Positions 1,523 to 55,552 of a stretch of 64,000 nt of DNA are shown here, one piece after another. Within the stretch, counting starts at the first letter, position 1. Every line of letters starts with the position of its first letter. Source of the DNA: Planctomycetota bacterium. GTDB lineage: Bacteria > Planctomycetota > UBA1135 > UBA2386. The stretch covers positions 3,616,001 to 3,680,000 of the forward strand of contig OZ245006.1 in the NCBI GenBank assembly GCA_965223545.1. The letters run 5' to 3'. The position numbers and the translations under genes are program-made. A model generated the notes under the pieces. It was given only the letters and a program-made list of their open reading frames with translations. It was not told the DNA's origin and did no database searches.

Positions 1523-2821
1523 CTACCTCCCGACGAGCACGGCCAGCCCCGGGCTCACTGCCAGGGCATTGTTGGGATCGATCGCCTGGCCACGGAAGAC
1601 CGCGCCCATGAGCGATGCGGAGTTGGGGATCGGCACCGGTGTGCGCGCGAACCCGGCCGCGTCAGCCGGCGCAGCCAGCAGCAGGTCGGCGGAGACCCGC
1701 AGCGGACAGCCGCCCGGCAGCGCCAGCGGCAAGGACGCCCCGCGCAGCACCTGGTCGGAGGTTCCCAGCGCGAGGATCGCCGTCGCGTTTGGCGTCAACC
1801 CTCCGGCCTGCAGTGCGAACTGCGTGTTGCCGACGTGCGGCCGCGACCACTCGAACAGATCGATGCCGGCTCCCTGCCCGCACGCCAAACCGAAGCGCAC
1901 CGCCCGGCCGACGTCCGAACGCGCGACGTCGAAGTCGACCGGGTCGCCCGGCAGCGGCCCCGCGACGATCCGCCACGGCCGCGCGGGGGCAGTGGCCAGG
2001 TTGACGACCTCCTTGAGGAACGGGTGCGCGGCATTCCCCAGCACCAAGGGGGAGCTGAATCGCTGCGCGCGCACGCGCACGGTCGCGCCGGCCGGCAGCA
2101 GCGGGGTGAAGGGAATCACTTCGGGCTGCTGGCTTCGCACGCCGACCGACACCGTGCCGTCGTCGTTGGCGAACAAGACGTGGCCCACGGCGTTCTGCAT
2201 TTGGAACACGCCGCGGATGCCGAATGGGCGGTAGCCGGCCATCGGCACTCCCGACGGCTGCTGGGCTCCGGTCAGCGGATCGAACACGAGCAGCTGCGGC
2301 TCGGTCGCCGGCGCCACTCCCGACTGCGCCACGAGCACGCCGCCGGCGAACCCGAGCTCACCGACTGCGTCGGCCCGCGGTAGCGGACTCAGCCGCGTCG
2401 CGGTGCCGCCCGTCCGCGGCAGCTGGTACAGACCGGCGCTCGCGCCCGTCGCGGTCAGCACCAGCGCGTCATCTCCGGCGAAGGCGAAGTCGGTGACCAC
2501 CGCCGGAACCACGCCGACGAGACGGCTCGCGGTGACCTGCCGGGCGCCGACGCTGAGCCGATAGACCGGCGTGTTGGCGCCGCCGTCGAGCGCCAGAAAC
2601 ACATCGTTGCCATGCGGGTCGAGGCGCAATGCGCGGGGTGGCGCTCCATCGACGGCGAATCGCGGATAGATCGTCTGGCCGCCACCGCGCACGTCGACTT
2701 CGACCAGCAATGTGGCCGCCGGGGTGTTGGTCCGCACGGCGACCAGGACGTGATCGAACGCCACCTGCGCCGTGACCGGAGCGGTGGTCAGGGCGGCGAG
2801 CAGCCAGGGTAGTGAGCGCAT
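1523..2821 (-). CDS. Secreted protein, beta-rich N-terminal region plus shared C-terminal domain
   Basis: Start reassigned to MRSLPWLLAALTTAPVTAQ (signal peptide). C-terminus FGLAC...PHVGN...GGCPLRV...PIPNSASLMG...Q. Confidence 0.75.
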   Translation of the reverse strand: MRSLPWLLAALTTAPVTAQVAFDHVLVAVRTNTPAATLLVEVDVRGGGQTIYPRFAVDGAPPRALRLDPHGNDVFLALDGGANTPVYRLSVGARQVTASRLVGVVPAVVTDFAFAGDDALVLTATGASAGLYQLPRTGGTATRLSPLPRADAVGELGFAGGVLVAQSGVAPATEPQLLVFDPLTGAQQPSGVPMAGYRPFGIRGVFQMQNAVGHVLFANDDGTVSVGVRSQQPEVIPFTPLLPAGATVRVRAQRFSSPLVLGNAAHPFLKEVVNLATAPARPWRIVAGPLPGDPVDFDVARSDVGRAVRFGLACGQGAGIDLFEWSRPHVGNTQFALQAGGLTPNATAILALGTSDQVLRGASLPLALPGGCPLRVSADLLLAAPADAAGFARTPVPIPNSASLMGAVFRGQAIDPNNALAVSPGLAVLVGR

Positions 2822-2977
2822 TTTTCGAATCCCTTGGAGTGAGAGGTGCCGCTCCGGGCTACGAGCAGGCGTGCGCGCCGGTCCCGATCCAGGCAGACCT
2901 CCCCGATCGCCCGCGGGGATTTGGTTGCACCCTTTCTCGCCGCGCGGGCGAGGAAGTTCCCCCAGGCTCTCCCACGC

Positions 2978-3949
2978 ATGCAACACGCACTCCTCCGTAC
3001 CGGCATCACCGTCTTCACCGCGATCACGCTGGCACCGTTGGCCGCCCAGCGGCAGCAGGCCACGCTGCACATCGACGAGCACACCGCCGTCCTCGACTAC
3101 GGTGTGCCGCGCTGGGGCAAACACTCGCTCGACGCCCTACCGGCCGGCAAGACCTGGCGCTTGGGCAGCAACGAGGCTTCGACCCTGACCACCGACGTGC
3201 CGCTGTTCACCGGCCGCGGCATGGTCGCGCCGGGCGCCTATCGCTGCCGGCTCTACCGGCACAAGGATGGCCAGCGCTATTACCTGCAGCTCGACTACGG
3301 ACGCTGGGCGCAGGGACTGAAGGCCCACGCCGAACGGCTGCCGGCGTCGCTGGTCGAGGGCGAGCCCGCCGAACGCCTGGCGATCGAGTGGCAAGATCGC
3401 GCCGCGGGGGCGCCCTCCCCCGAAGGCGGTGGAGATGCAGCGGCGCGCACCGCGGCACCCGCCAACATGCATGCAGTCGATCTGATCGCGAACTTCGGCC
3501 CCCACCAAATGCGCGTCGAGTTCACGGCAGCACCGGGCACCGCAGTGGGTCGCCTCCGCGGCTACACCCTGACCGCGTTTCAGATCCCGAGCGATCGGAT
3601 CGAGGCGCGCAACGAGCGCGAGCTGCCCACCGTGGTCGCCACCCTCAGGCCCAGAAAACCGGTGCGCAGCCGCAAGCAGCCGCCGTTCTTCAACCTGCTG
3701 ATCTCGGGCGACACGCTCTCGCTCGAACCCGCGCTGCGGGCGCCCACCGACTCGTTCGGCTTCGCCTCGCTCGAGCCGTGGCCCGACGAGTGGCGAGCGC
3801 GCGCCGAGGGCGAATGGCAGGCGGCCGACGCCGAGTACGCGCACTTCACCATCACCGGCGTCGAGCAGAAGCGCCGCACGCTCACCTTGCACTGCGCGCT
3901 CGGCCGCCGGACCGCCACGCTACAGGTCGAGATCCCGCGACCCCGGTGA
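2978..3949 (+). CDS. Secreted DUF2911-like protein
   Basis: Signal peptide ending LAAQ. Motif LDYGVPRW...WRLGSNEASTLTTDVPL...PGAY resembles DUF2911. Confidence 0.65.
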   Translation: MQHALLRTGITVFTAITLAPLAAQRQQATLHIDEHTAVLDYGVPRWGKHSLDALPAGKTWRLGSNEASTLTTDVPLFTGRGMVAPGAYRCRLYRHKDGQRYYLQLDYGRWAQGLKAHAERLPASLVEGEPAERLAIEWQDRAAGAPSPEGGGDAAARTAAPANMHAVDLIANFGPHQMRVEFTAAPGTAVGRLRGYTLTAFQIPSDRIEARNERELPTVVATLRPRKPVRSRKQPPFFNLLISGDTLSLEPALRAPTDSFGFASLEPWPDEWRARAEGEWQAADAEYAHFTITGVEQKRRTLTLHCALGRRTATLQVEIPRPR

Positions 3950-3965
3950 TCCTCTCAGACCCAGC

Positions 3966-4695: not shown

Positions 4696-5070
<375 letters not shown>

Positions 5071-11229: not shown

Positions 11230-11812
11230 GGCGCTCGAGCCGGCCGGGGTCGACCGCGGCACCCCGCTCCACCAGCAGGCGCGCCACCGCCGGCAGCCGA
11301 TCGCGATCGCCGTGCGTTCCCTCGTGCCAGGCGTGCAACGCCCACTCGAGCGGCGTGCAGTCGTACTTCTCGTCGGCGAGGCCGAGGTCCGCGCCGGCAT
11401 CGACGAGCCGCGCGCCGAGCTCCGACAGGCCCATCAGGGCAGCCCAGTGGAGCGCCGTTGCGCCGAACAGGCCGCGCCGCGCGACGTCCGCACCGGCGTC
11501 GAGCAACACCAGCCCGACGCTCTCGGCGCCGAGGCTCGCCGCGGCGATGAGAAACGTGTCGCCGCTCTCGGCGTAGTCGAGGTCGGGGTCGACGCCGGCG
11601 CCGAGCAGGACCTCGGCGAGCGCGCGCGCCCGCTCCTGGTCGACGAAGCGCCCAAAGACGGCGTCGCAGACGACGTGCAGCGGCGGGAGCCGGTGCGGGC
11701 TGCCGTGTTCGAGCCCGATCGGCTCGTGGGCGCTCTTCGGATCGGCCGCGACCAGCGCCCGCAGCGCCTCGACGTCGCCCTCACGGATCGCCTTGCCCAC
11801 CGTATCGGTCAT
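11180..11812 (-). CDS. Ankyrin repeat protein, last gene of rtcBA operon
   Basis: PPLHVV, GDTFLIAAA, GATALHWAA, TPLEWAL repeats. ATGA overlap with the rtcA stop. Confidence 0.88.
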   Translation of the reverse strand: MTDTVGKAIREGDVEALRALVAADPKSAHEPIGLEHGSPHRLPPLHVVCDAVFGRFVDQERARALAEVLLGAGVDPDLDYAESGDTFLIAAASLGAESVGLVLLDAGADVARRGLFGATALHWAALMGLSELGARLVDAGADLGLADEKYDCTPLEWALHAWHEGTHGDRDRLPAVARLLVERGAAVDPGRLERLTGPEHAAMRAALSRP

Positions 11813-14069: not shown

Positions 14070-14108
14070 GGTAGTGCTCGTGGTTGGTGCAGGATGCACG
14101 GGCGGTAG

Positions 14109-14124: not shown

Positions 14125-14228
14125 ACCGCCGTCGGTTTCCCCAAGTCTCGGCACGAAGGTGAGTTGGAGCCAGGCCCGCGAATGGCGAGGACAGCCCAAT
14201 CTGATCGATTTGTATAGTGTTTATCTAT

Positions 14229-15921: not shown

Positions 15922-18174
15922 ATGTTGCTGATCTGGCAAATGCTCGTGCTCGTGCTCGTTGCGCTTGCCACACCGGCATCAACGGCGCAACAGTGGGTTC
16001 GCACCGGCTCGTTCCACGCTGGCGACACGATCGCTGGAGCGTATGACGAGGGGCGCGGCCGCCTCGTGGTTCTGCGACAAGCGAACAACTCCACCGAGCT
16101 GTGGGAGTGGGATGGAGTGGCTTGGGCCCACCGAAGAGTCGCGCCGAATCCGCCGGCGGGATTCGCCGGTCAGATGGCCTACGACTCGTCCCGAGGAGTC
16201 TGTGTGTTGGTCGGCGTCGCGACGGGACAGTGGCTGCAAACCTGGACGTGGGACGGCGTCTCGTGGACCGGTCATTCCGGCCCAAGCCCTGCGCAACGCT
16301 GGCACTTCTGCCTGGCGGACGACCCGGTTCGAAGTCGCGTCGTGCTGTGCGGCGGCAGCCTCCTCCCGACCTGGAGCTCTGGGACCGCCAACGACGAAAC
16401 ATGGACTTGGGACGGAAGTGGGTGGCAACGCCAATCGGTCGACGTTCGCCCACCTCCCCGGCGTGGTGCCGGCATGGCGTTTGACGCGGCCCGCTCGGTC
16501 ATGGTTCTGTACGGCGGGGTTGGGGATAGCTTGCGCCAAGTCCACGATGATACTTGGGAGTGGGATGGGAGCACTTGGAGCCAGGCCTTCCCAAGCGCGA
16601 CACCGGGCGTCAATCGAGAGCCCGTGACGCAGATGACGTTCGACCCGGTCCGGTCGGAGACACTGCTCGTGACCATTACCAAGCCCCTGTCCGGTTCGGG
16701 GACGGCCGAGACGTGGACCTTTGACGGGAGAGCATGGCGATCCCACAACACGGGGCCGACCCTCTCGTACCACGACACGCCGCTTCTCTTGTCGGATCCA
16801 TCCGCAGGGCGCGTGTTGTCCCTCTTTCCCAGAAATCCGGGGAGCAGCCCGCCGTTTCCCGCGGAGCACGATGCGTGGCAATGGAACGGATCGGTCTGGT
16901 CACCCCTGCCGGTGGGTGGTGGACCTTCGCGACGCGTGGGCTCGGCCTTGGCCTACGACGCCGCACGCGGCGAGGTACTGCTGTTCGGGGGCGCCAACCA
17001 CGGCAACGCCCTCGACGGCACGTTCGATGATACTTGGCTCTGGGATGGACAGAGTTGGCGCGAGCACAAGGGAGCCCCGATCTTCGAACGGCGTGACGCC
17101 GCGGTTTGCTACGACTCGGCTCGGCAGAGGGTGGTCCTGTTCGGCGGCAGGGACCGCACTTGGGGCTACCCTCTGATCCCACGTGATACCCACGAGTGGG
17201 ATGGCACGCAGTGGATCACTCTGCCCGGCGGTCCGGGGAATCGCTTCGGGGCCGCCATGGCCTTCGACGAGCGCCGATCTCGGGCTGTGCTGTTCGGCGG
17301 ACAAGTGAGCCCCTACTACGGCGGCGGCGGGCTGCAGGACACGTGGGAGTGGGACGGCACCACCTGGACGCAAGCGCTGCCTGCGACCAAGCCGCCGCCC
17401 TGCACGACTCCGGCAATGGCATACGACCCGGTCCGCGGCGAGATCGTCATGGTCTGCGCTAGCACGACTTGGACCTACGACGGAGTGGATTGGTCGATGC
17501 GGCAACCGACGAGGTCACCGTCGCCTCGACCTGGCGCGGCGATGACCTACGACCCCACACGTGGAGCCGTTGTCTTCGCGGGAGGTTATGGGCAATCGAC
17601 GTTCGAACTCTGGGAGTGGAGCGGAGGCGATTGGTCCCCGAGGCAGGTTCGTGGAGGTCCGAGTACGCGTGGCGGCGCTGGCCTCGTCTTCGATCGACGG
17701 CGCCGCGAACTGTTCCTGCACGGTGGCGAAGCCAACTTGGGAACCGGGCCATTGGGAGGCACGTGGCGCCTGGGTGACCACATCATCCCGGCGGACGTCG
17801 CTATCGGCGACGCTGGCTGCTTCGGGCCGGTCGCCCGACCAGTGACTCGGCCATATGGGATCCCGACTCTTGGCAACAACGGTTTCGCGCTCGACGTGTA
17901 CGTGAGTGGCGTGAATCAGACCGGGGCCATGCTGGTGGGTTCCGCGGCCGCATCGGTCAGTCTCGGGGCCTGTGTGCTGGGCGTGGATCCCCTGCGTTCG
18001 ATCGTGTGGCCGTTCACCAGCAACACGCAGGGCTTCGCCAGCCTGCGGCTTCCGATCGGAGCCACCGCCGCGCTGGCGAGTGTGGAGCTGTACTCGCAAG
18101 CGGCGGTGCTCACCATGGGGACTGGGCTGGGAGTCACACTGACCAACGATCTTATCGTTCGCTTGGGTCACTGA
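15922..18174 (+). CDS. Secreted Kelch/galactose-oxidase-like beta-propeller protein with shared C-terminal domain
   Basis: Signal peptide ending STAQ. About 12 repeats of MAYDxxRxxxVLFGG...DTWEWDGxxW. Confidence 0.88.
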   Translation: MLLIWQMLVLVLVALATPASTAQQWVRTGSFHAGDTIAGAYDEGRGRLVVLRQANNSTELWEWDGVAWAHRRVAPNPPAGFAGQMAYDSSRGVCVLVGVATGQWLQTWTWDGVSWTGHSGPSPAQRWHFCLADDPVRSRVVLCGGSLLPTWSSGTANDETWTWDGSGWQRQSVDVRPPPRRGAGMAFDAARSVMVLYGGVGDSLRQVHDDTWEWDGSTWSQAFPSATPGVNREPVTQMTFDPVRSETLLVTITKPLSGSGTAETWTFDGRAWRSHNTGPTLSYHDTPLLLSDPSAGRVLSLFPRNPGSSPPFPAEHDAWQWNGSVWSPLPVGGGPSRRVGSALAYDAARGEVLLFGGANHGNALDGTFDDTWLWDGQSWREHKGAPIFERRDAAVCYDSARQRVVLFGGRDRTWGYPLIPRDTHEWDGTQWITLPGGPGNRFGAAMAFDERRSRAVLFGGQVSPYYGGGGLQDTWEWDGTTWTQALPATKPPPCTTPAMAYDPVRGEIVMVCASTTWTYDGVDWSMRQPTRSPSPRPGAAMTYDPTRGAVVFAGGYGQSTFELWEWSGGDWSPRQVRGGPSTRGGAGLVFDRRRRELFLHGGEANLGTGPLGGTWRLGDHIIPADVAIGDAGCFGPVARPVTRPYGIPTLGNNGFALDVYVSGVNQTGAMLVGSAAASVSLGACVLGVDPLRSIVWPFTSNTQGFASLRLPIGATAALASVELYSQAAVLTMGTGLGVTLTNDLIVRLGH

Positions 18175-23799: not shown

Positions 23800-24118
23800 G
23801 CATAATCACGTCGTGTAGCAGCCCAAACACCCGCCAATTGGCTGGTGTCGGAACGTGCTGGAAAAGCCCTCGTTAGAAATCCGGCGTGCCAAGTAGCGTG
23901 GTCGAGTTCGGAACTCGCAAGCCCAGCGATTCGTTACCCGCATCATCAAGCGCTACCACGGGCAGCGCGACGGCGGTGCCAGGGTTCGGACCTAGCTTCC
24001 CGTGGGGCGAAAGCCTGACAAGCGGAGTCGGCGCCCGTCCTGACAGGAACGGCACGACTCCAGCGGCGGCCGGGCGAGCTACGAATCGAACCGCAAACCG
24101 CGCGCCAACACGGGCCAA
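23800..24118 (-). pseudogene. Orphan remnant of the shared C-terminal domain
   Basis: RVGARFAVRF...FLS...LDDAGNESLGLRVPNSTTLLGT resembles the CTD pattern. No N-terminal part. Limits approximate. Confidence 0.4.
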
Positions 24119-24243
24119 ATAGGGCGTCGCGATGTGATGTTGCTGGTTGAGCGCCCGGAGAGGTTCGTTTGCGCTGCGCGCGCAGCGAACGGGTTTCGAG
24201 CTGTCGAAAGCACTCTGCTTCCAAAACCCCCCAAGCGAACAAC

Positions 24244-25380
24244 GTGAGCACCCCGAAGAAGCGACGCAAGGCCCGGCGCCGGGCCGAGAAGTTCATGGAC
24301 GAGGCGTGGGAGGCGGTCCTGCGGAACGACCTCGCCGCTGCCGAGAAGTACGGCCGCCGCGCGGTCGACGCGGGCCCGATGAACCCGCGGCTGTGGTTGG
24401 ACCACGGCCGCATCCTGCTGCAGTGCGAGGAGCGCGACGAGGCCGAGGCTGCGTTCCGGCAGGCGATCGCGTTGGCGCCCACCTTCGCCGACGCGTTCAC
24501 AGCGCTGGCCGATCTGCAGGCGCAGGCCGGCAAGCTGGTGCAGGCGGAGCGGCTGCAGGCGCGTGCGGTGGAGCTGGCTCCGGACGACGCCGAGGCCAAC
24601 AACCGCCTCGAGAGCTACCGGTGCCTGCTGCCCCCGAGCGGCGCCGGACCGACCGCGGATGCTCGCGAGCCACCGAAGACCACGACGCTGACCGACCGGT
24701 TCGATTGGGACGCAATCGCCGCCGCGCTGCGGGCGCACGGCATGGCTCCCCTGCGCGGGTTGCTGTCCGCCGCCGAGTGCGGAGAGCTCGCCGCCCTGTG
24801 GGACGACGAAGAGCGTTTCGAGCACAGCGTGCGCTACGACAGCGAGTCCGAGGGGCGCGTTGCATACCGCTTCTTCGCGCCGCCGTTGCCGCCGCTGATC
24901 ACCGCCCTGCGCAGTGAGATCTACGGCCGCGCGGCCATCATCTGCAACGAGTGGAACGTAATGCTCGGCCGGCCCGAACGGTTCCCCGCAACACTCGAGG
25001 ACTTCCTGGCCCGCTGCCGCGACGCGGGGCAGTACCGCTCCACGCCGATCCTGCTGCGCTACGAGGCCGGCGGCTTCAACGCCCCCCACCGCGACATCGC
25101 CGGCAAGTTGTGGTTCCCGCTCCAGCTCGCGGTGACGCTGGGGCCGGGCTGCAGCGACGACGGCGGCGGCGGCGAGCTGCTGCTCGTCGACCAACGTCCC
25201 GGCAAGCGTGTGCGCCAGCGCGCCCTACCGACTTCGGTGGGCGACGGCGTGCTGTTCTGCACACGCGAGCGACTGGTCGAGGTCGCGGGTGCCGTGGGCC
25301 TGCAAGGCGTGCAGCACGCGGTGGCGCCCGTGCGTCGCCCGCGCCTCGCGGTGGGCATCCCCTTCCACGAGCACGGGTGA
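24244..25380 (+). CDS. TPR-repeat + 2OG-Fe(II) oxygenase (DUF2086-like) fusion
   Basis: EAEAAFRQAIALAP TPRs. LLRYEAGGFNAPHRD (HxD), FPLQ, GGELLLVDQRP, VQH, GIPFH. GTG start assumed. Confidence 0.85.
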   Translation: MSTPKKRRKARRRAEKFMDEAWEAVLRNDLAAAEKYGRRAVDAGPMNPRLWLDHGRILLQCEERDEAEAAFRQAIALAPTFADAFTALADLQAQAGKLVQAERLQARAVELAPDDAEANNRLESYRCLLPPSGAGPTADAREPPKTTTLTDRFDWDAIAAALRAHGMAPLRGLLSAAECGELAALWDDEERFEHSVRYDSESEGRVAYRFFAPPLPPLITALRSEIYGRAAIICNEWNVMLGRPERFPATLEDFLARCRDAGQYRSTPILLRYEAGGFNAPHRDIAGKLWFPLQLAVTLGPGCSDDGGGGELLLVDQRPGKRVRQRALPTSVGDGVLFCTRERLVEVAGAVGLQGVQHAVAPVRRPRLAVGIPFHEHG

Positions 25381-37236: not shown

Positions 37237-39663
37237 GTGTCTGCCCCCCTTCAGATCCGGTCGATCTGCGCCCTCGCGCTGATCGCGCTGCTACCCCCCT
37301 GCGCTGCACAGACGCCGCCGGATCTGTACGACGACAGCGTCCTGCGCACCTTCGAGCTCCGCTTCGCCCAGCCGAATTGGTGGACGCTGCTCGAGCAAAA
37401 CAAGCCGGCGGAGCAGGAGATCCCCGCCGACCTCGTCGTCGACGGCCGCGTCTACCCCGGCGTCGGCGTGCGCTTCAAGGGCCGCTCCTCGTACATCGCC
37501 ACCCGCAACTCGCTCAAGCGGCCGTTTCGCATCGTGGTCGACTTCACGATCCCGGGACTGGAGCTGTACGGCTACTCCACGCTCAATCTCAACAACGGCT
37601 TTCGCGATCCGACGTTCCTGCGCGAGGTCGTCGGCTACCGCATGCTGCGTCGCTACACGCCGGCGCCAAAGGCCAATTGGGTCGAGCTCAAGATCAACGG
37701 CGAGAGCTGGGGGGTCTACATGAACGTCCAGCACGTCAACAAGGACTTCATGGACGAGTGGTTGGCGTCGAACGACGGCCACCGCTTCAAGCTCAGCCGT
37801 CCCGGCAACGTGTCGGCCAACGTCGCCGCCCTCAACTGGCTGGGATCGGAGCCGGCGCTCTATCAAGGAATCTACGAGCTGAAGAGCAACACACCGGCAG
37901 CGTGGAACGCGCTGGTCGCGCTCTGCGATGCGCTCGACAACAGCCCTGCCGGCCAGCTCGAAGCGCGGCTCACCCCGCACCTGCACATCGACCGCGCCCT
38001 CTGGTTCGTCGCGCTCAACAACCTCATGGTCGGGCTCGACAGCTACATCGGCACCGCCAACAACTACTACTTGGTGCAGGACGAGGTGCACCAGCGGTTC
38101 AGTGTCATATCGTGGGACCTCAATGACAGCTTCGGCAGCTTCTGGCTGTCGACGCCCGGTGTGCCCTCCAACCTCGACCCATTGTACCGCGAGCAAACGA
38201 GGACGCGACCGTTGGTCTCCTCGCTGCTCTCCGAACCGCACTGGCGGGCACGCTACTTGGCACACTACCGAACCGCGCTGCAGGAGGCCTGGGACTGGAA
38301 CACGGTCGGCAGCTGGATCGCGCAGTATCAGAGCCTGTTGGGCCCGGCGATCGCGGCGGACAAGGTCAAGCTCTACTCGACGGCACTGTTCTGGAGCAAT
38401 GTGACCCAGGCCACCGTGATCGGCACGGTCGTGATCCCCGGCCTCGAGCCGCTGGTCAAGGCGCGGCGCGCGTTCCTGGAGGCTCATCCCGAGCTCAGTG
38501 TGCCGCAGCCGTCAATCGGCAACGTCACTCACACTCCAGCCCAGCCTACGCCGACGACTCCAGTGCACGTGACCGCCACCGTCACCCCGGCGACAACGAC
38601 CGCACCTCCTGTCGTCGAGCTGCATGCGCGGGTCATCGGTTCGTACGTGCGGTTGCCGATGTACGACGACGGCCAGCACGGCGACGGCGCCGCCGGGGAC
38701 GGCGTCTACGGGGAGTCGATTCCACCGCAGGCCGCCGGGGCGACGGTGTCCTACTTCGTCACGGCGCACGACGCCAACGGCGCCATGCGGGTTGCGCCGA
38801 GCGGCGGCGCCGACGGCGCCCACGAGTACACCGTCACCGCCACGCCCACCGGCAACAGCCTGCGAATCAACGAGCTGATGGCGGACAATACCTCGACCAT
38901 CGCCGACCCCGCGGGCGACTATGACGATTGGCTCGAGCTGCACAATCCGACGACGGCGCCGATCGACGCGGCGGGCATGTATCTGACCGACGACCCAGCC
39001 CAGCCGACGCGGTGGCAGCTGCCGTCCGGCACGCTCGTCCCACCGGGGGCACACCTCTTGATCTGGGCCGATGCCGAGCCGTGGCAGGGCCCTTTGCACG
39101 CACCGTTCAGGCTCGGCGCGGGCGGCGAGACCGTCGCTCTGTACGACACGGACGGCACGACCCTGCTCGATCAGATCACCTTCGGCCCACAGGTGGCCGA
39201 CGCCAGCACCGGGCGCCTTCCCGACGGAGCACCGCTGTGGGTGACGCTGTTGGACCCCAGTCCGACGGCCGCCAACGCCGTGCCGGTCTGTGGGTCGCTC
39301 GCCTTCACCGCGCGCGATGCCACCGCCCAGCAGGGGTTGCTGACCCTGACGAGCACCCCCAGCATCGGCGGCAACATCGACATCTTCTTGGCCGGCCTGC
39401 CGGCGGCTTCGCCCACGGCGATCGTAATCGGCGGCGGCGCGGCGCACCTGCCGCTGCCCGGTTCGGCATCGATGTTGCTCCTCGCGGCACCGATGGCGAC
39501 CGCGCTCACGCAGACCAGCTCGGTGCTCGGCACGCTGGCGCAGTCGGTGCCGATCCCCGACGACCCCGCACTGGTCGGCCTGCGAATCGCGGTGCAGGCG
39601 GTGAGCGTGCTGCCGAGTGGGCCCGCCGCGAGCAGCGCGGTCTGGTTCGACATCTGCGGCTGA
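37237..39663 (+). CDS. CotH kinase family protein with lamin-tail domain and shared C-terminal domain
   Basis: VGVRFKGRSS, LNLNN, DPTFLRE, DSY...NYYL, WDLN. MYDDGQHGDGAAGDGVY. INELMADN...DWLELHN (LTD). Confidence 0.92.
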   Translation: MSAPLQIRSICALALIALLPPCAAQTPPDLYDDSVLRTFELRFAQPNWWTLLEQNKPAEQEIPADLVVDGRVYPGVGVRFKGRSSYIATRNSLKRPFRIVVDFTIPGLELYGYSTLNLNNGFRDPTFLREVVGYRMLRRYTPAPKANWVELKINGESWGVYMNVQHVNKDFMDEWLASNDGHRFKLSRPGNVSANVAALNWLGSEPALYQGIYELKSNTPAAWNALVALCDALDNSPAGQLEARLTPHLHIDRALWFVALNNLMVGLDSYIGTANNYYLVQDEVHQRFSVISWDLNDSFGSFWLSTPGVPSNLDPLYREQTRTRPLVSSLLSEPHWRARYLAHYRTALQEAWDWNTVGSWIAQYQSLLGPAIAADKVKLYSTALFWSNVTQATVIGTVVIPGLEPLVKARRAFLEAHPELSVPQPSIGNVTHTPAQPTPTTPVHVTATVTPATTTAPPVVELHARVIGSYVRLPMYDDGQHGDGAAGDGVYGESIPPQAAGATVSYFVTAHDANGAMRVAPSGGADGAHEYTVTATPTGNSLRINELMADNTSTIADPAGDYDDWLELHNPTTAPIDAAGMYLTDDPAQPTRWQLPSGTLVPPGAHLLIWADAEPWQGPLHAPFRLGAGGETVALYDTDGTTLLDQITFGPQVADASTGRLPDGAPLWVTLLDPSPTAANAVPVCGSLAFTARDATAQQGLLTLTSTPSIGGNIDIFLAGLPAASPTAIVIGGGAAHLPLPGSASMLLLAAPMATALTQTSSVLGTLAQSVPIPDDPALVGLRIAVQAVSVLPSGPAASSAVWFDICG

Positions 39664-43556: not shown

Positions 43557-46499
43557 ATGCACAGTCACCTCCATCCCGCAGTCGCGATCCTCGGCGCGTG
43601 CTGCGCGCTGGCGGCGCAAGCGCCGCGCCAGCTCCTCGATATCCGCCAGCCCACGCAGACCGTGTCGTCCAGCCCGACGGACCTCACGCGCTCGGGGGCG
43701 ACGATCTTCTTCACCGCCACCGGGCTCAGCGGCCGTGAGCTCTACCGCACGCTGGGAGGCGTGGGTGGCGCAAGCCTCGTCGCCGATCTCGCGCCCGGCA
43801 GCACCGGCTCGAACCCGTCGGCGCTGACGCCATTTGGCGGTGGAGTCTACTTCGTCGCCGACGACACGGTCAGCGGCCGCGAGCTGTGGTACTCGGACGG
43901 CACGGCGACCGGCACCCGGCTGATCGCCGACCTGGTCGCCGGCAGCGGCGGGGCCAACCCGCGCTCGCTGACGCCCTACGGCACCGATCTCTACTTCGTC
44001 GCCACGCCGCAGACCGTGCTGTGGCGGACCAACGGCACGACCGCCGGGACCACGCCCGTGGCCGGCGCGCCGGCGACGGGCGAGGTCGCCACGGCGGCGG
44101 GTCGCCTGTTCTTCATCGGCTACGACGGCTTCGATTGGGGACTGTGGACCATCGGCGCGGCGGGCATTCCGAGCGAGCTGCAGTCGTTCCCCAACAACGC
44201 GCGGTCGCTGACCGGTACCGGCAGCCGCCTGTACTTCGTCGCCGACGACGGCGTCAGCGGCTTGGAGCTGTGGACCTCGGACGGCACCGCCCCCGGCACG
44301 CGACGCGTCGCCGACATCGCCCCCGGTGCAGCGAGCAGCAACCCGACGACCCTGACCCCATCGGGCAACTCCCTGTTCTTCGCCGCGACGGAGCCCACTC
44401 GGGGCAACGAGCTGTGGGTGACCGACGGCACCACCGCGGGCACGCGCGCCGTCACCGACCTCAACCCCGGCCCCGCGGGATCCGCGCCGACGGAGCTCGT
44501 CGCATTTGCCGGGGGCGTGGTGTTCCGCGCCGACGACGGCAGCGGCAATGGCCTTTGGCGCACGGACGGCACGGCCGCCGGCACGGTGCTCTTGCGCGCC
44601 AACAGCACTGCCCTCGGCCTGCACGCGATTGCGACCGACGTGTTCTTCCGCGATCTCATCGATGGCGAGCTGTGGGCCACCGACGGGACGCCGGGCGGCA
44701 CCCGGCGCGTGGTCGAGTTCTTCGCCGGCCCCCGCGGCGGCAACCCGGGGGGCTTCGTCGTCCATGCGTCCAACCGGAGTGTCGTGTTCGCCGCGGACCG
44801 ACCCGTGTCGGGCCGAGAGCTGTTCGTATCGGACGGCACCGCCCTGGGAACCGTGCTGCTCGACGACCTCAACACGGCGCCGTTGTCGGGCAGCACGGAC
44901 TCGGATCCCGCCGAGTTCACCGCGCTGTTCGGCGGTGGCCTGTTCACCGCCGACGACGGCGTGCTCGGTCGTGAGCTGTGGTTTACCAATGGCACTGCCG
45001 CCGGGACCACGCTGACCTTGGATGCCCGCGTCGGCCCCGCCGGAGCCGACCCCCGCGAGCTCACCCGAGTCGGCGCGCAGGTGCTCTACTCCGCGGAGAC
45101 CGACGCGAACGGCAGGGAGCTCTGGTGCTCCGACGGCACCGCCGCCGGCACGCGGCTCGTGCGGGACATCTTCCCCGGGGTGCTGCCGTCCATTCCGTCG
45201 GAGCTGACCGCCGCCGGTGGATACGCCTGGTTCTCGGCCGATGACGGCAGCGGTCGCGAGCTGTGGCGGTCCGATGGAACCGCCGCCGGCACCGCCATGG
45301 TGGCGGATCTGGAGCCGGTCGGCGGGTCCGCGCCGCGCTTCTTGGTGGCGCTGCAGGATCGGGTCCTGTTCTTCGCCTACACGCTGGCCATCGGTCTGGA
45401 GCTGTGGGAATCGGACGGGACACCGGGGGGCACCCAGGCGGTCAAGGACATCAACCCCGGTTCCGGGTCCACGTTCCCGCAGGCAATGGTCGCCGCCGAG
45501 AACCGCGCCTACTTCATCGCCAGCATCGGAACGTCCACGGGGCTCTGGACCACCGACGGAACCGCACAGGGCACGATCAACCTGACCCAGGGCACCGCCG
45601 GCCGGATCATCGCTCCCTTTGGCGCGGCGGTGCTGTTCGTGGTCTCGAAGCTCAGCGGGCCGGAACTGTGGTACACCAACGGAACGCGCATCAACACACG
45701 CCTGGTCGCGGGCCTCGGACCCGGCGTGCTGGGACCCCACTCGTGGGCGGGCGCCAGCGCCGGCGGCTTCGTCTACTTCGCGGTTCCCGACCCGACGCTC
45801 GGCACCGAGCTGTGGCGCAGTGACGGCACGGTGGCTGGCACGACGCGCATTACCGATCTGCGGCACGGCGACGTCGACCCGCAGGCGATCCCGATCACCG
45901 CCGCCGGCGACCGCCACGTGTACTTCGCGGTGCGGACCACCACCGACGTCGAGCTGTGGCGCACCGACGGCACCGCGGCGGGGACGACCCAGCTCGGGCC
46001 GGCGTTCTACAGCGTTGGCAACAGCCGCGGACAGCGGGCCAGCTTCGCGCTGATCGATGGGCGCATCCTGTTCGCCGCCGACGGCCCCGCGGGCAGCGGC
46101 GTCGCCGGCATCGAGCCGTGGGTCTTCGATCCCGGCGCCACCGCTCAGCCGTGGCCGGTGGCGTGCCCCCTCGGCACGCGCCCAACCCTCACCGCGTCCG
46201 ACCCGGTGCTCGGCAGCACCGCCGGCATCCGCCTGGTGCAATCGACGCCGGCAACGGCGGCCGCCATCTTGGTGTCGGCAGCCCTGCCGCCGGTGCGGCT
46301 CCCCGCCAGCACGTGTGCGCTGGTCGTCGACCCGTTCTCCGCGCTGGCGACCGTCGGCACCGGGGGCAGTCTCACGGCAAGTGCCCCCGTTCCCGCCCAA
46401 CAGATCCTGCAGGGATTGCGCGTCGCGCTGCAGGGGGCGACGTTGAGCACCGCGGGCTTGTCGATCTCCGACGGGATCTACTGGACCCTGGGCCGCTGA
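43557..46499 (+). CDS. Secreted ELWxxDGT-repeat protein with shared C-terminal domain
   Basis: Many FxADDGxxGxELWxSDGTxxGT repeats. Signal ending LAAQ. Confidence 0.92.
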   Translation: MHSHLHPAVAILGACCALAAQAPRQLLDIRQPTQTVSSSPTDLTRSGATIFFTATGLSGRELYRTLGGVGGASLVADLAPGSTGSNPSALTPFGGGVYFVADDTVSGRELWYSDGTATGTRLIADLVAGSGGANPRSLTPYGTDLYFVATPQTVLWRTNGTTAGTTPVAGAPATGEVATAAGRLFFIGYDGFDWGLWTIGAAGIPSELQSFPNNARSLTGTGSRLYFVADDGVSGLELWTSDGTAPGTRRVADIAPGAASSNPTTLTPSGNSLFFAATEPTRGNELWVTDGTTAGTRAVTDLNPGPAGSAPTELVAFAGGVVFRADDGSGNGLWRTDGTAAGTVLLRANSTALGLHAIATDVFFRDLIDGELWATDGTPGGTRRVVEFFAGPRGGNPGGFVVHASNRSVVFAADRPVSGRELFVSDGTALGTVLLDDLNTAPLSGSTDSDPAEFTALFGGGLFTADDGVLGRELWFTNGTAAGTTLTLDARVGPAGADPRELTRVGAQVLYSAETDANGRELWCSDGTAAGTRLVRDIFPGVLPSIPSELTAAGGYAWFSADDGSGRELWRSDGTAAGTAMVADLEPVGGSAPRFLVALQDRVLFFAYTLAIGLELWESDGTPGGTQAVKDINPGSGSTFPQAMVAAENRAYFIASIGTSTGLWTTDGTAQGTINLTQGTAGRIIAPFGAAVLFVVSKLSGPELWYTNGTRINTRLVAGLGPGVLGPHSWAGASAGGFVYFAVPDPTLGTELWRSDGTVAGTTRITDLRHGDVDPQAIPITAAGDRHVYFAVRTTTDVELWRTDGTAAGTTQLGPAFYSVGNSRGQRASFALIDGRILFAADGPAGSGVAGIEPWVFDPGATAQPWPVACPLGTRPTLTASDPVLGSTAGIRLVQSTPATAAAILVSAALPPVRLPASTCALVVDPFSALATVGTGGSLTASAPVPAQQILQGLRVALQGATLSTAGLSISDGIYWTLGR

Positions 46500-46520: not shown

Positions 46521-47603
46521 CTACCGATACTCGATGACGCAGCCCGAGCCCGCCTCCCACGCGCCGTCACTGCTCGTCGACGGGGCGTAGCCGCTGGTCA
46601 CGTCGCTGGGGATCGCGGAGGGCAGCATCGGCACGACCTGCACGGCGCCGTTGCTGACCGCCACTCCCATCGGGTAGCTGGCGACCGTGGTCGGCGCGAT
46701 CGCCTGCATGTAGATCGGCACGCGGGTCAACGTCATGGACAACGGCAGCGCGGTCGACAACTTGAGCTGCCCGGTCGGGCCCGTCGCGCCGATGATGCCG
46801 AGGCCGATCTGTCCGCCGACCGGCACCGGCTCGCACGGACAGCGCGGGCCCGGGCAGACGCCGAGGTCGTCGTCGGTGCCCACCAGCAGCGCCACCGCGA
46901 CGTTGGGCTCGCCGACCACGCACAGGTCCCAGCCAAACGAGGTCGCCCCGCGGCGCACGCTCATCGTGCTGTCCAAGCTCATCGGGGCCATGGCGCCCGA
47001 GAAGTCGGGAACGTCACAGCCGTCCGGCCCCTTGCCGGCGACGATGCAGGAGCCCTCGACATCGATGGGGTAGGGTCCGGTGGGCGAGACGCCAGTGCCG
47101 ATGATGTCGACCAGCAGCGCCGAGTCCGCGGTCGTCCGCGCGTACGGATAGGGTGTGTCGAACGGCAGGTAGAACGAGCTCGCACTGCCAAACGCGACGG
47201 GAGCCGACCCCGGCTTGCGCTGCAGATCGGGCAGCGCCACCGTCTTGTCAGGGCCGATGACCACGATGCTGTTGGTGCCGCGCACGAACGGCGCGGTGCC
47301 CCCCGATGGCACGGTGCGGTAGTCGATCTCGTGCAGCTCGACGGTCGCCAAGAACGACCGCGGCCCGGCCGCGAGCTCGTCGTACTGATAGCCGTCGCGA
47401 CGGAAGCCGAGCGCGCCGTAAACCCCGCCCGGCGCGCCCTTGTCCACTTGCTGGTAGCGAAACGCGGCGGTGGCGAACAGGTCGTTGCGCACGCCGACAC
47501 CCTCGACCGCGCCGAGGCCGGGCGGGCTCGTGGTCTGCGCGGGCGCGCCGGCCGCCCACAGGGCGGCGATCGACAGGGTCAACAACAGGGTGGTGCGAGG
47601 CAT
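46521..47603 (-). CDS. Secreted hypothetical protein with divergent shared C-terminal domain
   Basis: Signal ending APAQ. RYQQ...LGFRRD...PFDTPYPY, similar to the 54434 protein. Confidence 0.7.
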   Translation of the reverse strand: MPRTTLLLTLSIAALWAAGAPAQTTSPPGLGAVEGVGVRNDLFATAAFRYQQVDKGAPGGVYGALGFRRDGYQYDELAAGPRSFLATVELHEIDYRTVPSGGTAPFVRGTNSIVVIGPDKTVALPDLQRKPGSAPVAFGSASSFYLPFDTPYPYARTTADSALLVDIIGTGVSPTGPYPIDVEGSCIVAGKGPDGCDVPDFSGAMAPMSLDSTMSVRRGATSFGWDLCVVGEPNVAVALLVGTDDDLGVCPGPRCPCEPVPVGGQIGLGIIGATGPTGQLKLSTALPLSMTLTRVPIYMQAIAPTTVASYPMGVAVSNGAVQVVPMLPSAIPSDVTSGYAPSTSSDGAWEAGSGCVIEYR

Positions 47604-47625: not shown

Positions 47626-50369
<2,744 letters not shown>

Positions 50370-50373
<4 letters not shown>

Positions 50374-53300
50374 AGCCCCAGCCGCAGCTCGATCGCCGGC
50401 GAGGTGTCGAAGCCGAAGAACGGGTCATCGGAGGGGAACACGAGCGCCTGCACGCGCAGGTTGGCGCCGATGTAGCTCGACACCAGCGGGATCGGCAGCA
50501 CCGCGTTGTAGTTGGTGATCGCCGGCGCGGAGCCGAACTGCAAGAACGTGCCCAAGTCGAGCTGCAGGGTGCAGCCACCCTGCAGCGGGGCCGGCAGCAG
50601 CGGCCGGGTGCTGATGTAGAACAGCGCCGTCGTGCCGGGCAGGTTGCCGGAGCCGGAGCCGTCGAACTGGACGTTGCCGCCGATGTGCGGCGCAGTCGCA
50701 TACAGATCGGGGCGGCGGTCGTAGCCGCCGCAGCCGGTGCCGAAGCGGCGGGCGACCGCGTCGGCGGGCAACGACCACGGCTCGGTGCCGGTGACCCCGT
50801 CGTCGGCGTTGAAGACCATGCTGTGCTGCGCCACGCCAAAGCGCGCGTCGCCACTCGACGACGACGCCGGCCCCGGCGCCAGGTCGGCAATGCGGTGCGG
50901 GTTCTGCAGGAACAGCGTCTCGACGATCCACGGCTCGCGGCCGACACCCGGTTCGTCGGCGGTGAAGTAGAGATCATCGGAGCTGAAGAACAGCCCGCGC
51001 GGCGACGACGAACCCGGGCCCGGCACGAGATCGAGCAGGGTCGGCGCGCCGAGGCTCGCCCACCAGAGCTCCTCGCCGGCGACGCCGTCATCGGCGACGA
51101 ACGCGACCCGGTCGATGTGCAGCCGGGTGATCTCGCGCGGGTCGGAGCCGAGCGGACCCGGGCGCAGGTCGGCGATCTGGACCGTACCGGGCGCGGTGCC
51201 GTTGGAGCGCCACAGCTCGAGCCCGGTGGCACCGTCGTCCGCGGCGAAGTACAGCCTGGGGCCGGTGGTCACCATCTCGCCCGGGATGCCGTCGGCGCCG
51301 CCCGGGTTGATGTCGCGCACCAGCTGCGTCCCACTGGGGAAGCCACCGGAAGTCCACAGCTCGCGGCCGGCCGTGCCGTCGTCGGCGGTGAAGTAGAGGA
51401 CGTTGCGATAGCCGATGAGCGTGCGCGGGGCCGAGCCCTGCGGCCCCGGTCGCAGATCACCCAAGAACAGCAACGCCGGCGAAAAGCGCGGCGCGCGCCA
51501 GTGCAGCACCCAGAGCTCTTCGCCGTTGGTACCGTCGTCCGCGGTGAAGAACAGGTTGTTGCCGACGACGGTGAAGTGCGCGGGATTGGACGATCCCGGC
51601 CCGGGGTTGATGTCGTAGAGCTGCTGGTTGAAGTAGAACTCGCGGCCGTTGGTGCCGTCGTCCGCCGAGTAGGCGATGTTGCGGCCGACCGGCGTCAAGT
51701 GCTGCGGGTCCGAGGATCCCGGCCCCGGATTGACGTCCGCGTAGAGCGCGAACCCAGTCCCCGCGGCCGACGCGGTCCACAGCTCCAGCCCGGCGGCGCC
51801 GGTGTTGGCAAAGAACGCCCGCCAATCGGCGGTGAACACCACCTCGTCGATCGGTGAGCTGCCAAGGAAGGAGAGGTTTGCGAGCAGCGCGGTCCCCGCC
51901 GCGGTGCCGTCGGTGCGCCAGAGCTCGCGCCCGGTCGCCGGTTCGGTCGCCATGAACCACAGGTCCCCGGTCGGCGTCTCCCAGTAGGGACCGGGGTCGG
52001 AGCCGGGGTCTGCACCTTGCGCCAGGTCGGCCAGCACGCTGCTGGTACCGCCCTCGCGGTAGACGTGCGGCTCGATGCCGAGCGGGTCGACACCACGCGC
52101 GGCGAACAACACGGTCTCCGCCCCCGGAGTCGTCGACATCACCACGGCGTGGTCGGGATTCGACGAGGTCAGCAGACCGAGCCCGGGCCGCACGTCGTAG
52201 ACCAGCTGCGCGGTCAGTCCGTCCGTGCGCCACAGCTCGCGCCCGGTCGCACCGAGGCCGGTGTCGGCGCTGAAGTAGACGTGCGCGTCGCTCTGCGCCA
52301 AGAAGCGCGGCGCGCTGCTGCCGCTGGTGTGGATGTCGGCAAGCGGCGCGACGCTGAACAAATCGAGCCGATACGGCTCGTCACCGGTCACTCCGTCGTC
52401 CGCGACGAACAGGATCGGCTGGTTGAACGGATCGAGGGCCGCCGCGGAATACAACCCGTGCGGGTCGGCGCTCGCCGCCCCCGGCGCCAAATCCGTCAGC
52501 TGGAACACCTGCCCCGAGAACGCATCCGTCATCCACAACTCGCGACCGCTGCGGCTCGTGGTCGCGGCAAACACCACGGTGTTGCCGCGCGCCGTCAGCT
52601 CGTCGGGATCGGCACCGACACTCCCCACCTCCAGATCGACCGCCAGCCCGTAGCTCGGCGTGCCGCCACCGAACGGCTCGAACCACGAGTACAGCTCGAC
52701 CCCCGCCACCGGATCATCGGCGACGAACCAAACGGTGACCCCCTGCGAGAAGAACGACGGAACCAGCGGCCCGTGGTGCGCCAAGCGCCGCGCGACCACC
52801 CCGTCCAAGGGACCGGCCGCAACGTCGGTGAGCCGCTCCGCCCCCCCGACGCTGGCGCGCCAAAGCTCGCGTCCGTGCGTGCTGGTCCACGCCGAGAAGA
52901 ACGTGCGGATCTCGGGCCTGCCGGTCACCACGTCGAACCACTCGACGACGTGCAGATCACGCGGACTCGACGACCCCGGCCCGACCTCGATGTCCTGCAC
53001 CCTCGCCGTGCCCGCGGCCGTCCCGTTCGTGCGCCACAGCTCGACGTCACCGCTCGCGAGATCGCGCGCCGAGAACAGCACGGTGCTCCGGTTCTGCGCC
53101 CAGTTATCCGGATACGACACGGGCTCGATCGCGGCCAACGACACGGTGCCAACCGCAGTCCCGTCGGTCGCCCAAAACCGGTTGTCCGCGAAGAACACCA
53201 CCCGGCCGTTCACCGACAGCAGCTTCTCCACATCCGACGAAGCAGCTCCCGGCACGATGTCGACGAGCAGCTGCGTGCCCGCGGCCGTGCCATCCGTCGA

Positions 53301-53486
53301 CCAGAGCTCGCGACCCGCGCTGGGAGTGCGCGCACTGAACAACCACTGGTTGCCGAGCGCGGTGAACTCGCGCGGATCGGAGCCCACCGGTGTGCTCGGG
53401 GTGTTGATGTTGGCAAGGCGAGTCGGCGTTTGCGAACCGGCGACGCCGGTGGCGAACGCCACAGCGAGGGGCAGGAGGGTGCGCAT
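50370..53486 (-). CDS. Secreted ELWxxDGT-repeat protein with shared C-terminal domain
   Basis: GRELWSTDGTAAGT repeats. Signal MRTLLPLAVAFATGVAGSQ. Confidence 0.92.
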
Positions 53487-53705: not shown

Positions 53706-54164
53706 ATGAGGACAGGTGGATTCCCAGGCCAAGCGGAGGCCCTTCGCGCAAGGCTCGAGCAGGTCAAGAACGATGGGCGCCGAATGGCGACGCGGCGGAT
53801 GTTTGGCGGGCTCCTGGTTGGAGCTGTCGCCGGTGTCGCAAGCACCTACACTCTCGTTGGCAACCCGGCGCACGTCGAAGCAAGCAGTTTGGACTCGTCA
53901 CCGCATTGGGCACGCGAACTGGCAACTGGCCCTTTCGAACGATTACTGCGCTCGCAAGTCACCTTCGTCGCCACCGTCATGCAAAGTCCGCAGCCCGACC
54001 CAGCTCTGTGGACCGGAGTTTCCCGCCTGGTGCACTGCGCGGCGGAAGGCGATCCACGAGTCAAGCCTGGTGTGCGCGTCGCGATCAGCAGTTTGCTAGA
54101 TCGGCCCGACCTCCCTGCTCACATGCGGCCATGGCGGACCCTCCACTTGAACGGTGAGAAATAG
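53706..54164 (+). CDS. Hypothetical protein with one hydrophobic helix
   Basis: ORF overlaps the next gene's start. MFGGLLVGAVAGVASTYTLV segment. Confidence 0.5.
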   Translation: MRTGGFPGQAEALRARLEQVKNDGRRMATRRMFGGLLVGAVAGVASTYTLVGNPAHVEASSLDSSPHWARELATGPFERLLRSQVTFVATVMQSPQPDPALWTGVSRLVHCAAEGDPRVKPGVRVAISSLLDRPDLPAHMRPWRTLHLNGEK

Positions 54165-54423
54165 CGAAGTGGCCCCCGCTGGCGAGCTGACCATTCAACC
54201 GAATCCGGTGACGGAAGGGTCGGACGTCCAGATCGAATACCAGGGCCCCGGACCATTGCTTGTTTCCGTCGATGGACAGGACTGGGAAGAGGTCCCACTC
54301 GACGACCAGGGTCAAGGTTCATTCACTGCGCCGAGCGGCACGAGCGTCTTGCTGTTCTCGGATCATGATCTCCCTGATCCCTCAGAGGACGCCGTTGTCG
54401 TGGTTAGCACGAGCTCACCGTAG
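54154..54423 (+). CDS. Small acidic Ig-like hypothetical protein
   Basis: LTIQPNPVTEGSDVQIEY. Its stop abuts the AGGAG RBS of the next gene. Confidence 0.55.
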   Translation: MRNSEVAPAGELTIQPNPVTEGSDVQIEYQGPGPLLVSVDGQDWEEVPLDDQGQGSFTAPSGTSVLLFSDHDLPDPSEDAVVVVSTSSP

Positions 54424-54433
54424 GAGACCCACT

Positions 54434-55552
54434 ATGCGCACTTCGATTGCACCGTTTGCCGCCCTCATCAGCGCAACCGCGATCCTCAGCGGAACGTCGG
54501 TCGGGCAGAGCATCGTCACGGTTCCGGCGGGCCTCGATCAGCGGGAGGGCAACTCGCGCGGGTTGGTGCCCGGCTTCAACGCACACTGGCGACAGCAGGT
54601 ACTGCTCGACGCGAGCCTGCTGTCCACGATCGCGGGACAGCCCGTGCAGGCGCTGTGGCTGCGGCGCGACCACGAGCTCGGGATTGCGTATCCGGCGGGA
54701 CGCGCCCGGGTGCGGTTGTCGATCTCGACGGCGCAGCGCGGCGTGGCGAATCCCTCACGCAACTTTGCCGACAACCGCGGCACGCCCACCGTCGTGTTCG
54801 ACGGCGAGCTCGCGCTCCCGGCGGTCACGGCGCCCACAGGAGCAGCGCCATGGGCCACGCCGTCGGCTGTACGGGTGCCGTTTTCGACCCCGTTCGTGCA
54901 CGGCAGTGGCGACTTGTGCATCGAGATCGAAGGCACGCCGGTCGTAACGCCCGCCGCCTGGTCCGTCGACTACGAGCACCGCGCGGTCGGCGCGACGGTC
55001 TCTCCCCGCGGCACACCCTGCGGCGGGCCCAGCAACCACTTTCGCAACACCGCGCTCGCCTGGGGGCGCCATCTCGTGCCGGGATCGACGGGGATTCTGG
55101 TCTCCTTCGGACAACCCAGCACGCCCGCGATCGTCGTGCTCGGCGCAGCCCCAATCGACCCCGGTGTCCCGCTCGATGGGATTGGCGCCACGGGTTGCAA
55201 GGTGTACGTGCGCCCCGACATCGCGGTGCCCACCGCCTACGGTGCGCTGACGGGTCCAACCCCGTTTGCACCCCTGCGCTTCGAGCTTGAGCTACCCGCT
55301 AGCACCACCCTGCTCGGCAAGACCTTTCACGCGCAGTGGGTCAACCTCGAGACCGGTCCGGCGCGCAGCAATCCCGCGGGCCTGACCACCACCAACGCGC
55401 TCGACATCACGATGGCCGCCACACCGCCACCGGTAATGATGTCCACAGTCTCCTCGCGCCAAGTCGACCCCAGCCTGCCATGGCCGGACGAGGGCCGCAT
55501 CCAAGTCGCGCGCGGCCCGGTGCTTGGCTTCGAGCTGCAGTCCACACGCTGA
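54434..55552 (+). CDS. Secreted hypothetical protein with shared C-terminal domain
   Basis: AGGAG RBS. Signal ending SVGQ. WRQQVL...LWLRRD...PFSTPFV. GTPC...GATGCKVYVRP...LLGKTFHAQW...NPAGLTTTNAL. Confidence 0.8.
   Translation: MRTSIAPFAALISATAILSGTSVGQSIVTVPAGLDQREGNSRGLVPGFNAHWRQQVLLDASLLSTIAGQPVQALWLRRDHELGIAYPAGRARVRLSISTAQRGVANPSRNFADNRGTPTVVFDGELALPAVTAPTGAAPWATPSAVRVPFSTPFVHGSGDLCIEIEGTPVVTPAAWSVDYEHRAVGATVSPRGTPCGGPSNHFRNTALAWGRHLVPGSTGILVSFGQPSTPAIVVLGAAPIDPGVPLDGIGATGCKVYVRPDIAVPTAYGALTGPTPFAPLRFELELPASTTLLGKTFHAQWVNLETGPARSNPAGLTTTNALDITMAATPPPVMMSTVSSRQVDPSLPWPDEGRIQVARGPVLGFELQSTR

Follow-up and report, generated by a model that had tools for sequence, protein, structure and literature searches.

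An abundant C-terminal domain restricted to some Planctomycetota lineages and shared by unrelated, probably exported proteins

Introduction

Terminal modules shared by many otherwise unrelated exported proteins are known from type IX secretion (by the T9SS), whose substrates carry a C-terminal domain (CTD), from PEP-CTERM proteins and from dockerins. PEP-CTERM signals and their MYXO-CTERM and GlyGly-CTERM counterparts combine a short motif with a transmembrane helix and a basic tail and are cut by a membrane protease. Some modules of these types need type II secretion (by the T2SS) for delivery to the surface (Haft; 10.1101/2023.06.07.544157), and the T2SS itself exports folded proteins, with a loop of the Fn3 domain serving as a key secretion signal of Pel3/PelI (PMC7949064). 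In Bacteroidetes, Gln often follows the signal peptide (the Q-rule), a feature that is reported not to act as a generic sorting signal (PMC5837995). Here, we analyze a domain of about 120 residues encoded seven times in a 64,000-nucleotide stretch of a Planctomycetota genome (GenBank assembly GCA_965223545.1, contig OZ245006.1, positions 3,616,001 to 3,680,000; hereafter the window), which an earlier note on this DNA had put forward as a candidate sorting or anchoring system. We find that the domain is real, very abundant and lineage-restricted, a single module carried by unrelated proteins, and we weigh what it may do.

Results

A single domain on several hundred proteins of one genome

The source genome (G000) is 8.1 Mb in two contigs, 91% complete and about 70% G+C; its 69,420 six-frame open reading frames (ORFs) formed the search space, and reversed sequences served as decoys. 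The closest relatives of its seryl-tRNA synthetase (SerRS), at 57–69% identity, are in metagenome-assembled genomes that mostly bear the label Planctomycetota. The frames, coordinates, strands and motif described in the earlier note for its seven segments all held. The segments align at 20–29% identity to the first of them, share one invariant Gln and resemble one another weakly (E < 1e-3 in 2 of 21 pairs). Because only those two pairs are significant alone, each seed was iterated separately against the six-frame ORFs, and six of the seven converge on the same 310–329 ORFs (overlaps 297–320). The remaining seed (46632-47035) retrieves itself alone; it is recovered at E 7.2e-5 in one run from another seed and at E 1.5e-7 when C-termini alone were searched, and the N-terminal part of its protein matches a domain-carrying subfamily (E 9.5e-16). 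Judged by these matches, it is a divergent member of the family, and the proposed module common to seven proteins is borne out.

At E ≤ 1e-3, the final profile matches 344 ORFs, each of which has a single copy, and no reversed decoy. An artefact of chance or composition was rejected, as no decoy matched even at E ≤ 0.1. A cysteine-free variant with an LPLNxD motif, homologous to the main form (HHalign 96%, E 3e-9), adds 24 ORFs and brings the total to at least 368 carriers. When the last 170 residues of called genes were searched, the same profile found 373 carriers and a second-round profile, trained on some of the new matches, found 408–420 with 0–1 decoy matches; the genome likely holds 400–430 carriers, about 6–7% of the 5,782 genes in our home-made gene call.

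Of 114 copies compared with Pfam and NCBIfam, at most 3 match any one family, even with the threshold relaxed to E ≤ 0.1, and no T9SS model is among the families matched. The PDB sequences gave no family match (one match at E 0.13), and the 30 nearest ESM Atlas clusters, which are from Planctomycetota, share no Pfam family. In the openly accessible literature searched, no paper describes the domain in its title or abstract opening, and passages of 10.1101/817700, PMC11495043, PMC11032199 and 10.1101/2023.06.07.544157 make no mention of it. The domain is thus absent from the catalogues searched (Pfam, NCBIfam, PDB sequences) and from the literature searched.

Distribution across Planctomycetota

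A profile built from the 114-copy alignment and run against 1.84 billion cluster representatives matched 37,310 representatives (50% identity) at E ≤ 1e-3; a word-index protein search for longer forms returned 4 proteins, far below the full profile scan. In the best 150 database matches, the domain is C-terminal in 145 and directly follows the signal peptide in 5. It is present in 19 of 20 relatives of the same order and in 66 of 301 genomes of the phylum, the source included, with several matches in 61 and one in 5; this survey scored 14 candidates per genome and could miss weak copies, and four of the five single-match genomes remained single when more candidates were scored. The distribution is near all-or-none by family. 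Of 29 genomes reached via named loci, the domain was found in the 8 whose SerRS is closest (one of them carries the label Luminiphilus, probably in error) and not in the other 21, of which 7 are Planctomycetota at a greater distance and 14 are labelled as other phyla. A small carrier genome of another order or class (G178, ~2.4 Mb) has 31 copies in 1.94 Mb, 29 terminal and 2 N-terminal. The order of the source, in turn, includes a 91%-complete genome (G015) with no copy. The domain is seen only in some Planctomycetota lineages, in line with the idea that it is lineage-specific and sits on unrelated secreted proteins (66 of 301 genomes, 105 passenger clusters).

Position, export signals and passengers

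The domain ends within 5 residues of the stop codon in 304 of 344 ORFs, against about 22 expected under random placement, and within 10 residues in 306; it is followed by 10–59 residues in 26 ORFs and by 60 or more in 12. Every one of the 344 genome ORFs and of the 150 top database matches has a single copy, never a tandem. Three genome proteins consist of a signal peptide and the domain only, and the domain directly after a signal peptide also occurs among genome carriers. In the source genome and in a second genus, the Cys-free variant forms the end of a membrane protein that is multi-pass and glycosyltransferase-like (named by eye, with no Pfam match). No Pro/Thr/Ser-rich linker lies upstream of the domain. 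Three paralogous proteins of ~810 residues have the domain at the N-terminus together with an alpha/beta-hydrolase-like motif (G000:C1 7601490-7604584, 5007980-5011110 and 6484142-6487195), each gene being followed by that of a ~215-residue secreted partner of no recognized family.

Signal peptides were called with a home-made heuristic whose background is high (39%). At the called start, 175 of 336 carriers pass, compared with 1309 of 5180 other genes; with starts allowed to shift by 60 codons, the counts rise to 280 of 336 and 2045 of 5180, and, by eye, a leader is obvious or the start is miscalled in many of the 56 carriers that fail. Gln stands at +1 in 241 of the 280 passing carriers and in 729 of the 2045 other passing genes. 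By this heuristic the carriers are not often cytoplasmic, and the domain is not placed at random in them, with 304 of 344 terminal against about 22 expected. By eye and by the heuristic, all seven window proteins have a short, hydrophobic N-terminal leader and, after it, small-x-small-Gln, which agrees with the Sec signal peptides assigned to them earlier.

Among 316 passengers compared, there are 105 unrelated clusters. FG-GAP, Kelch, LamG, sulfatase, beta-lactamase-like, di-haem peroxidase, GSDH and spondin families are represented in the 67 carriers scanned, about half of which lack a Pfam match at 1e-6. Carrier genes cluster, with 67 adjacent pairs against a shuffle mean of 22.5.

Sequence features and predicted fold

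In 321 aligned copies, both members of a Cys pair are present in 195, neither in 107 and one in 19. Because the two cysteines covary, a disulfide joining the N-terminal arm and a hairpin is proposed; the co-occurrence points to it and supports the suggestion that the module is probably disulfide-closed. Near-invariant positions are Gly, Pro and Gln, with no conserved aromatic platform. Charged residues (Asp/Glu/Lys/Arg) make up 8.2% of the domain, 17.4% of passengers and 22.8% of other proteins; the domain has 4.2% Asp+Glu and 4% Lys+Arg, is rich in Pro and Gly, and is hydrophobic at consecutive positions in several strands, a pattern that may reflect an exposed hydrophobic face.

An AlphaFold2 model of the Kelch-protein copy (pLDDT 92.4, pTM 0.84) is all-beta, and an Ig/macroglobulin-like beta-sandwich is confidently predicted. 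Structural matches are macroglobulin (MG), Ig and Fn3 domains, the best at Z 8.8–9.2 with many ties; the PorU C-terminal region ranks 39 (Z 7.4). GM2 activator and MD-1 are among weak Foldseek matches (E about 6e-3, TM 0.3–0.4).

In a subset of carriers, the domain does not form the C-terminus. The 23 ORFs with a tail of 10–30 residues seeded a profile of the N-terminal part that found 32 ORFs (the 'inserted' subfamily); the domain is present in 27 of them, and the remaining 5 are members that have diverged or are broken. The model of a 372-residue member (54434-55552, pLDDT 91.5) has jelly-roll or lectin-like PDB matches, including small single domains, that span residues 1–349 (Z 8–10), and Ig-like matches confined to about residues 173–306. 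The domain is thus predicted to be inserted within its passenger, and its removal would split that passenger.

Search for a dedicated machinery

PorV and exosortase (PF09721) were not found in the 91%-complete genome, with positive controls, nor was dockerin (PF00404) genome-wide, again with positive controls; SprA, Por_Secre_tail and peptidase C25 were likewise not found in the genome, in searches whose controls were silent. Of the glutaminyl cyclases, the plant type (PF05096) was sought and not found in the genome. The genome has six secretins, and homologues of gspD, E, F, G, H, J and K are present, all scoring below NCBIfam cut-offs (gspE and gspF narrowly). The gspK gene is separate from the gspD-J operon and sits behind a tandem pair of short secretins of about 470 residues (locus L141, G000:C1 1170056-1175088), and a pair of long secretins flanks a cluster of ExbB/ExbD-like and TPR genes (C1 7078860-7090901). 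The domain-negative G015 retains gspD (E 1.4e-107) and the short secretin near gspK (E 5.7e-45), and secretins occur in 62 of 63 genomes tested, irrespective of the domain. As dedicated machinery, gspD and the short secretin beside gspK were rejected because neither tracks the domain.

We also compared the envelope proteins of the source genome with 1.94 of about 2.4 Mb of G178, a comparison that the missing 20% and fast-evolving genes could escape. The two share 887 genes, 184 with a hydrophobic N-terminus; 72 of these were Pfam-scanned and 18 had no family at 1e-8. Inspection by eye of 13 of the 18, with their neighbours, revealed no convincing candidate for a dedicated barrel, sortase or scaffold. 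Beside carrier genes, Ser/Thr kinases (22/97), ECF sigma factors (12/23, 6/19 and 5/17) and transposases are enriched over a 10% background (families named by eye), and no barrel- or protease-type family is; the kinase and sigma-factor neighbours suggest regulation, not sorting. No dedicated machinery emerged from the genome, relative and neighbourhood comparisons.

Carriers and neighbouring genes in the window

Five window proteins end in the domain. They are an exported protein of 432 residues with no Pfam family (1523..2821, minus strand; domain about 1526-1897, E 1e-17 to 4e-21); a Kelch beta-propeller protein of 750 residues (15922..18174, plus; domain 17803-18171), the copy used for the AlphaFold2 model; a protein of 808 residues with CotH kinase, choice-of-anchor X and lamin-tail regions (37237..39663, plus; domain about 39337-39660), which lacks the second conserved Cys; and two ELWxxDGT-repeat proteins of 980 (43557..46499, plus; domain 46146-46496) and 1038 residues (50370..53486, minus; domain 50373-50750). 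The other two belong to the 'inserted' subfamily. In the 372-residue protein (54434..55552, plus), the domain at about 55007-55411 is predicted inside a jelly-roll/lectin-like domain formed by the N-terminal part and the C-terminal tail; in the 360-residue protein (46521..47603, minus), the divergent domain at about 46632-47033 is followed by a tail that by homology would complete the N-terminal domain, a reading taken from the folded paralogue at 54434..55552. The coordinates of these two copies, earlier called sub-terminal, stand; the simple tail that the term implied gives way to a predicted insertion in another domain. An eighth, decayed orphan copy (23873..24292, minus; E 1.5e-8 to 6.6e-5) is stop-truncated, with no signal peptide or passenger domain recognized.

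A two-gene cassette recurs before 'inserted'-subfamily genes. Its first gene in the window (53784-54164, plus) encodes a protein of ~125 residues with a twin-arginine-like leader, and its second (54154-54423, plus) an acidic protein of ~85–90 residues without a signal peptide, which starts L-x-x-x-PNP-V-x-EG and has 7 paralogues in the genome; the cassette (53784-54423) has no Pfam match, and its ESM Atlas neighbours are weak and Ig-like (0.82 or less). Between two carrier genes on the same strand lies a kinase and FGE-sulfatase gene (47626-50367, minus). Elsewhere, the window holds a group II intron (57076-58859, minus) with a reverse transcriptase/maturase ORF and an Rfam RF02001 match, adjoined by a transposase-like ORF (59139-60179); the RNA-repair proteins RtcB and RtcA together with a divergent regulator named RtcR-like by eye (11809-15875); a 2,800-residue VIT and vWA protein (27918-36353, minus), opposite which the other strand has an open frame of the same length; and, in a region of low coding score, a gene for an 86-residue secreted Cys-rich peptide (22812-23072, minus) directly upstream of a multihaem cytochrome gene (20121-22724, minus).

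Discussion

We favour, at a probability of about 0.5, the reading that the domain is an uncleaved, charge-poor module that docks proteins non-covalently at a shared site of the cell envelope. Carriers would be exported through Sec and cut by signal peptidase I, mostly leaving Gln at +1, as their leaders suggest, and would then fold in the periplasm, where a disulfide may tie the N-terminal arm to a protruding hairpin in about 60% of copies. The module itself would escape proteolytic removal: we favour a retained module over a processed signal because it also occurs inserted, at the N-terminus, alone and on a membrane protein, and because no linker precedes it. Its uncharged, Pro/Gly-rich hydrophobic surface would bind a shared partner, for which the outer membrane or a layer upon it is the likeliest candidate, and any passage through the outer membrane would probably use the general T2SS, whose genes are present. 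In this way, beta-propellers, lectin-like domains, hydrolases and redox enzymes would remain attached to the cell, and one copy per protein is as expected of a stoichiometric handle.

Several observations weigh against this reading. The analysis brought no binding partner or location to light; about 88% of copies sit at the extreme C-terminus, a bias that exceeds what a mere binding module requires and that export tags typically show; the fusion to a membrane protein, a single gene among 368, could be an accident; and the signal-peptide evidence comes from a heuristic with a 39% background. The structural matches are generic and reveal no function, and a lipid-binding ML fold (beta-cup) was not upheld, being absent from the 50 listed entries after re-alignment.

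Single copies in terminal position would also suit an export tag that is read by the T2SS and marks folded periplasmic proteins for the secretin, with no anchoring role. The genome has gsp homologues and six secretins, and the Fn3 domains of Pel3/PelI are among the tied fold matches (Z 7.4–8.4). We nonetheless find this explanation doubtful: G015 keeps gspD and a short secretin without the domain, secretins are domain-independent across the survey (62/63 genomes), T2SS signals are composite and not modular according to PMC7949064, and the multi-pass membrane protein that bears the variant cannot be a T2SS substrate. It is distinctly unlikely that the domain, like a carbohydrate-binding module (CBM), binds an extracellular target such as a polysaccharide, particle, prey or biofilm matrix. 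Such binding needs no machinery, and none was found; Ig-like sandwiches include CBMs (BhCBM56, Z 8.0), and many passengers are lectin-like or hydrolytic. The domain, however, is never in tandem and lacks a conserved aromatic platform, and several hundred passengers with unrelated functions would all have to be served by a single ligand.

A T9SS-like C-terminal signal that an unrecognized dedicated machine cuts off and exchanges for a covalent anchor would account for the Ig-like fold with its strong C-terminal bias, the Gln+1 leaders as in Bacteroidetes (PMC5837995), the ELWxxDGT and choice-of-anchor X passengers and the near all-or-none distribution by family. We hold it to be very unlikely given the inserted, N-terminal and stand-alone forms and the missing linker; moreover, the genome yielded no PorV (nor SprA, Por_Secre_tail or C25, with silent controls), and no conserved unexplained barrel or protease is shared with the 2.4-Mb carrier or enriched beside carrier genes. 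Least probable among the explanations considered is a domain with no targeting role, either a folding or stabilizing cap or a self-associating block, spread by domain shuffling. That it abuts its passenger without a linker, often on repeat propellers, that carrier genes cluster (67 pairs against 22.5) and that decayed copies exist would all fit, but the same passenger families, including CotH, Kelch and FG-GAP, occur without it in these genomes, the domain occurs alone, and one copy is maintained across 61 genomes of many families.

As to the sorting or anchoring system first proposed, the unnamed, lineage-restricted module stands; no machinery of its own emerged, and the non-terminal forms argue against a processed tag of the T9SS or PEP-CTERM kind. 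Taking the docking module further, we tentatively suggest that this deep branch of the Planctomycetota may possess a new display system, in which a disulfide-closed Ig-like handle on 6–7% of gene products would fix them, uncleaved and sortase-free, in a modular coat on the surface or to the outer membrane once they have passed through type II secretion, and might also serve as a T2SS address.

In these widespread and mostly uncultured Planctomycetota, whose secretomes largely lack annotation, one profile now picks out several hundred likely surface or envelope proteins per genome. Should it anchor or export passengers without cleavage, the domain would stand next to T9SS tags, dockerins and sortase-type signals as a further principle of protein sorting and might be usable as a display tag; a T2SS address would make the open question of how this system chooses its substrates testable with a single module; and, in a display system, the domain would rank with the largest families so far missing from the catalogues (37,310 representatives at 50% identity).

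On the features tested, the domain falls outside the T9SS CTD, PEP-CTERM and dockerin families. Like the type A CTD of Bacteroidota (TIGR04183, Por_Secre_tail), it is a single C-terminal Ig-like beta-sandwich by prediction, on many unrelated Sec substrates, and, as in T9SS substrates, Gln often follows the signal peptide (PMC5837995). It differs from that CTD in the absence of a sequence match, in length (about 120 versus about 72 positions), in its Cys pair, in its phylum, and in occurring also at the N-terminus, alone and inserted, in a genome where PorV was not found. With PEP-CTERM/exosortase, MYXO-CTERM and GlyGly-CTERM, it has in common that a lineage-specific C-terminal module is borne by diverse exported proteins; unlike those signals, it is a folded all-beta domain by prediction, charge-poor with 4% Lys+Arg, and no exosortase was found in the genome. 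The best structural matches, A2ML1, E. coli alpha-2-macroglobulin, C3, TEP1 and LILR Ig (Z 8–9.2, rmsd 2.6–3.3 Å over 89–104 residues), place it with MG, Ig and Fn3 domains, although identities are 8–15%, scores are tied, there is no sequence-level match, and the N-terminal Cys arm (model residues 1–14) falls outside nearly all of these alignments. In the docking reading, the domain would by analogy resemble dockerin/cohesin and SLH anchors, which are uncleaved modules at either end of a protein that dock on a shared scaffold; it departs from dockerins in having no match to them in the genome, no duplicated acidic Ca-binding loops or such helices in the model and no tandem repeats.

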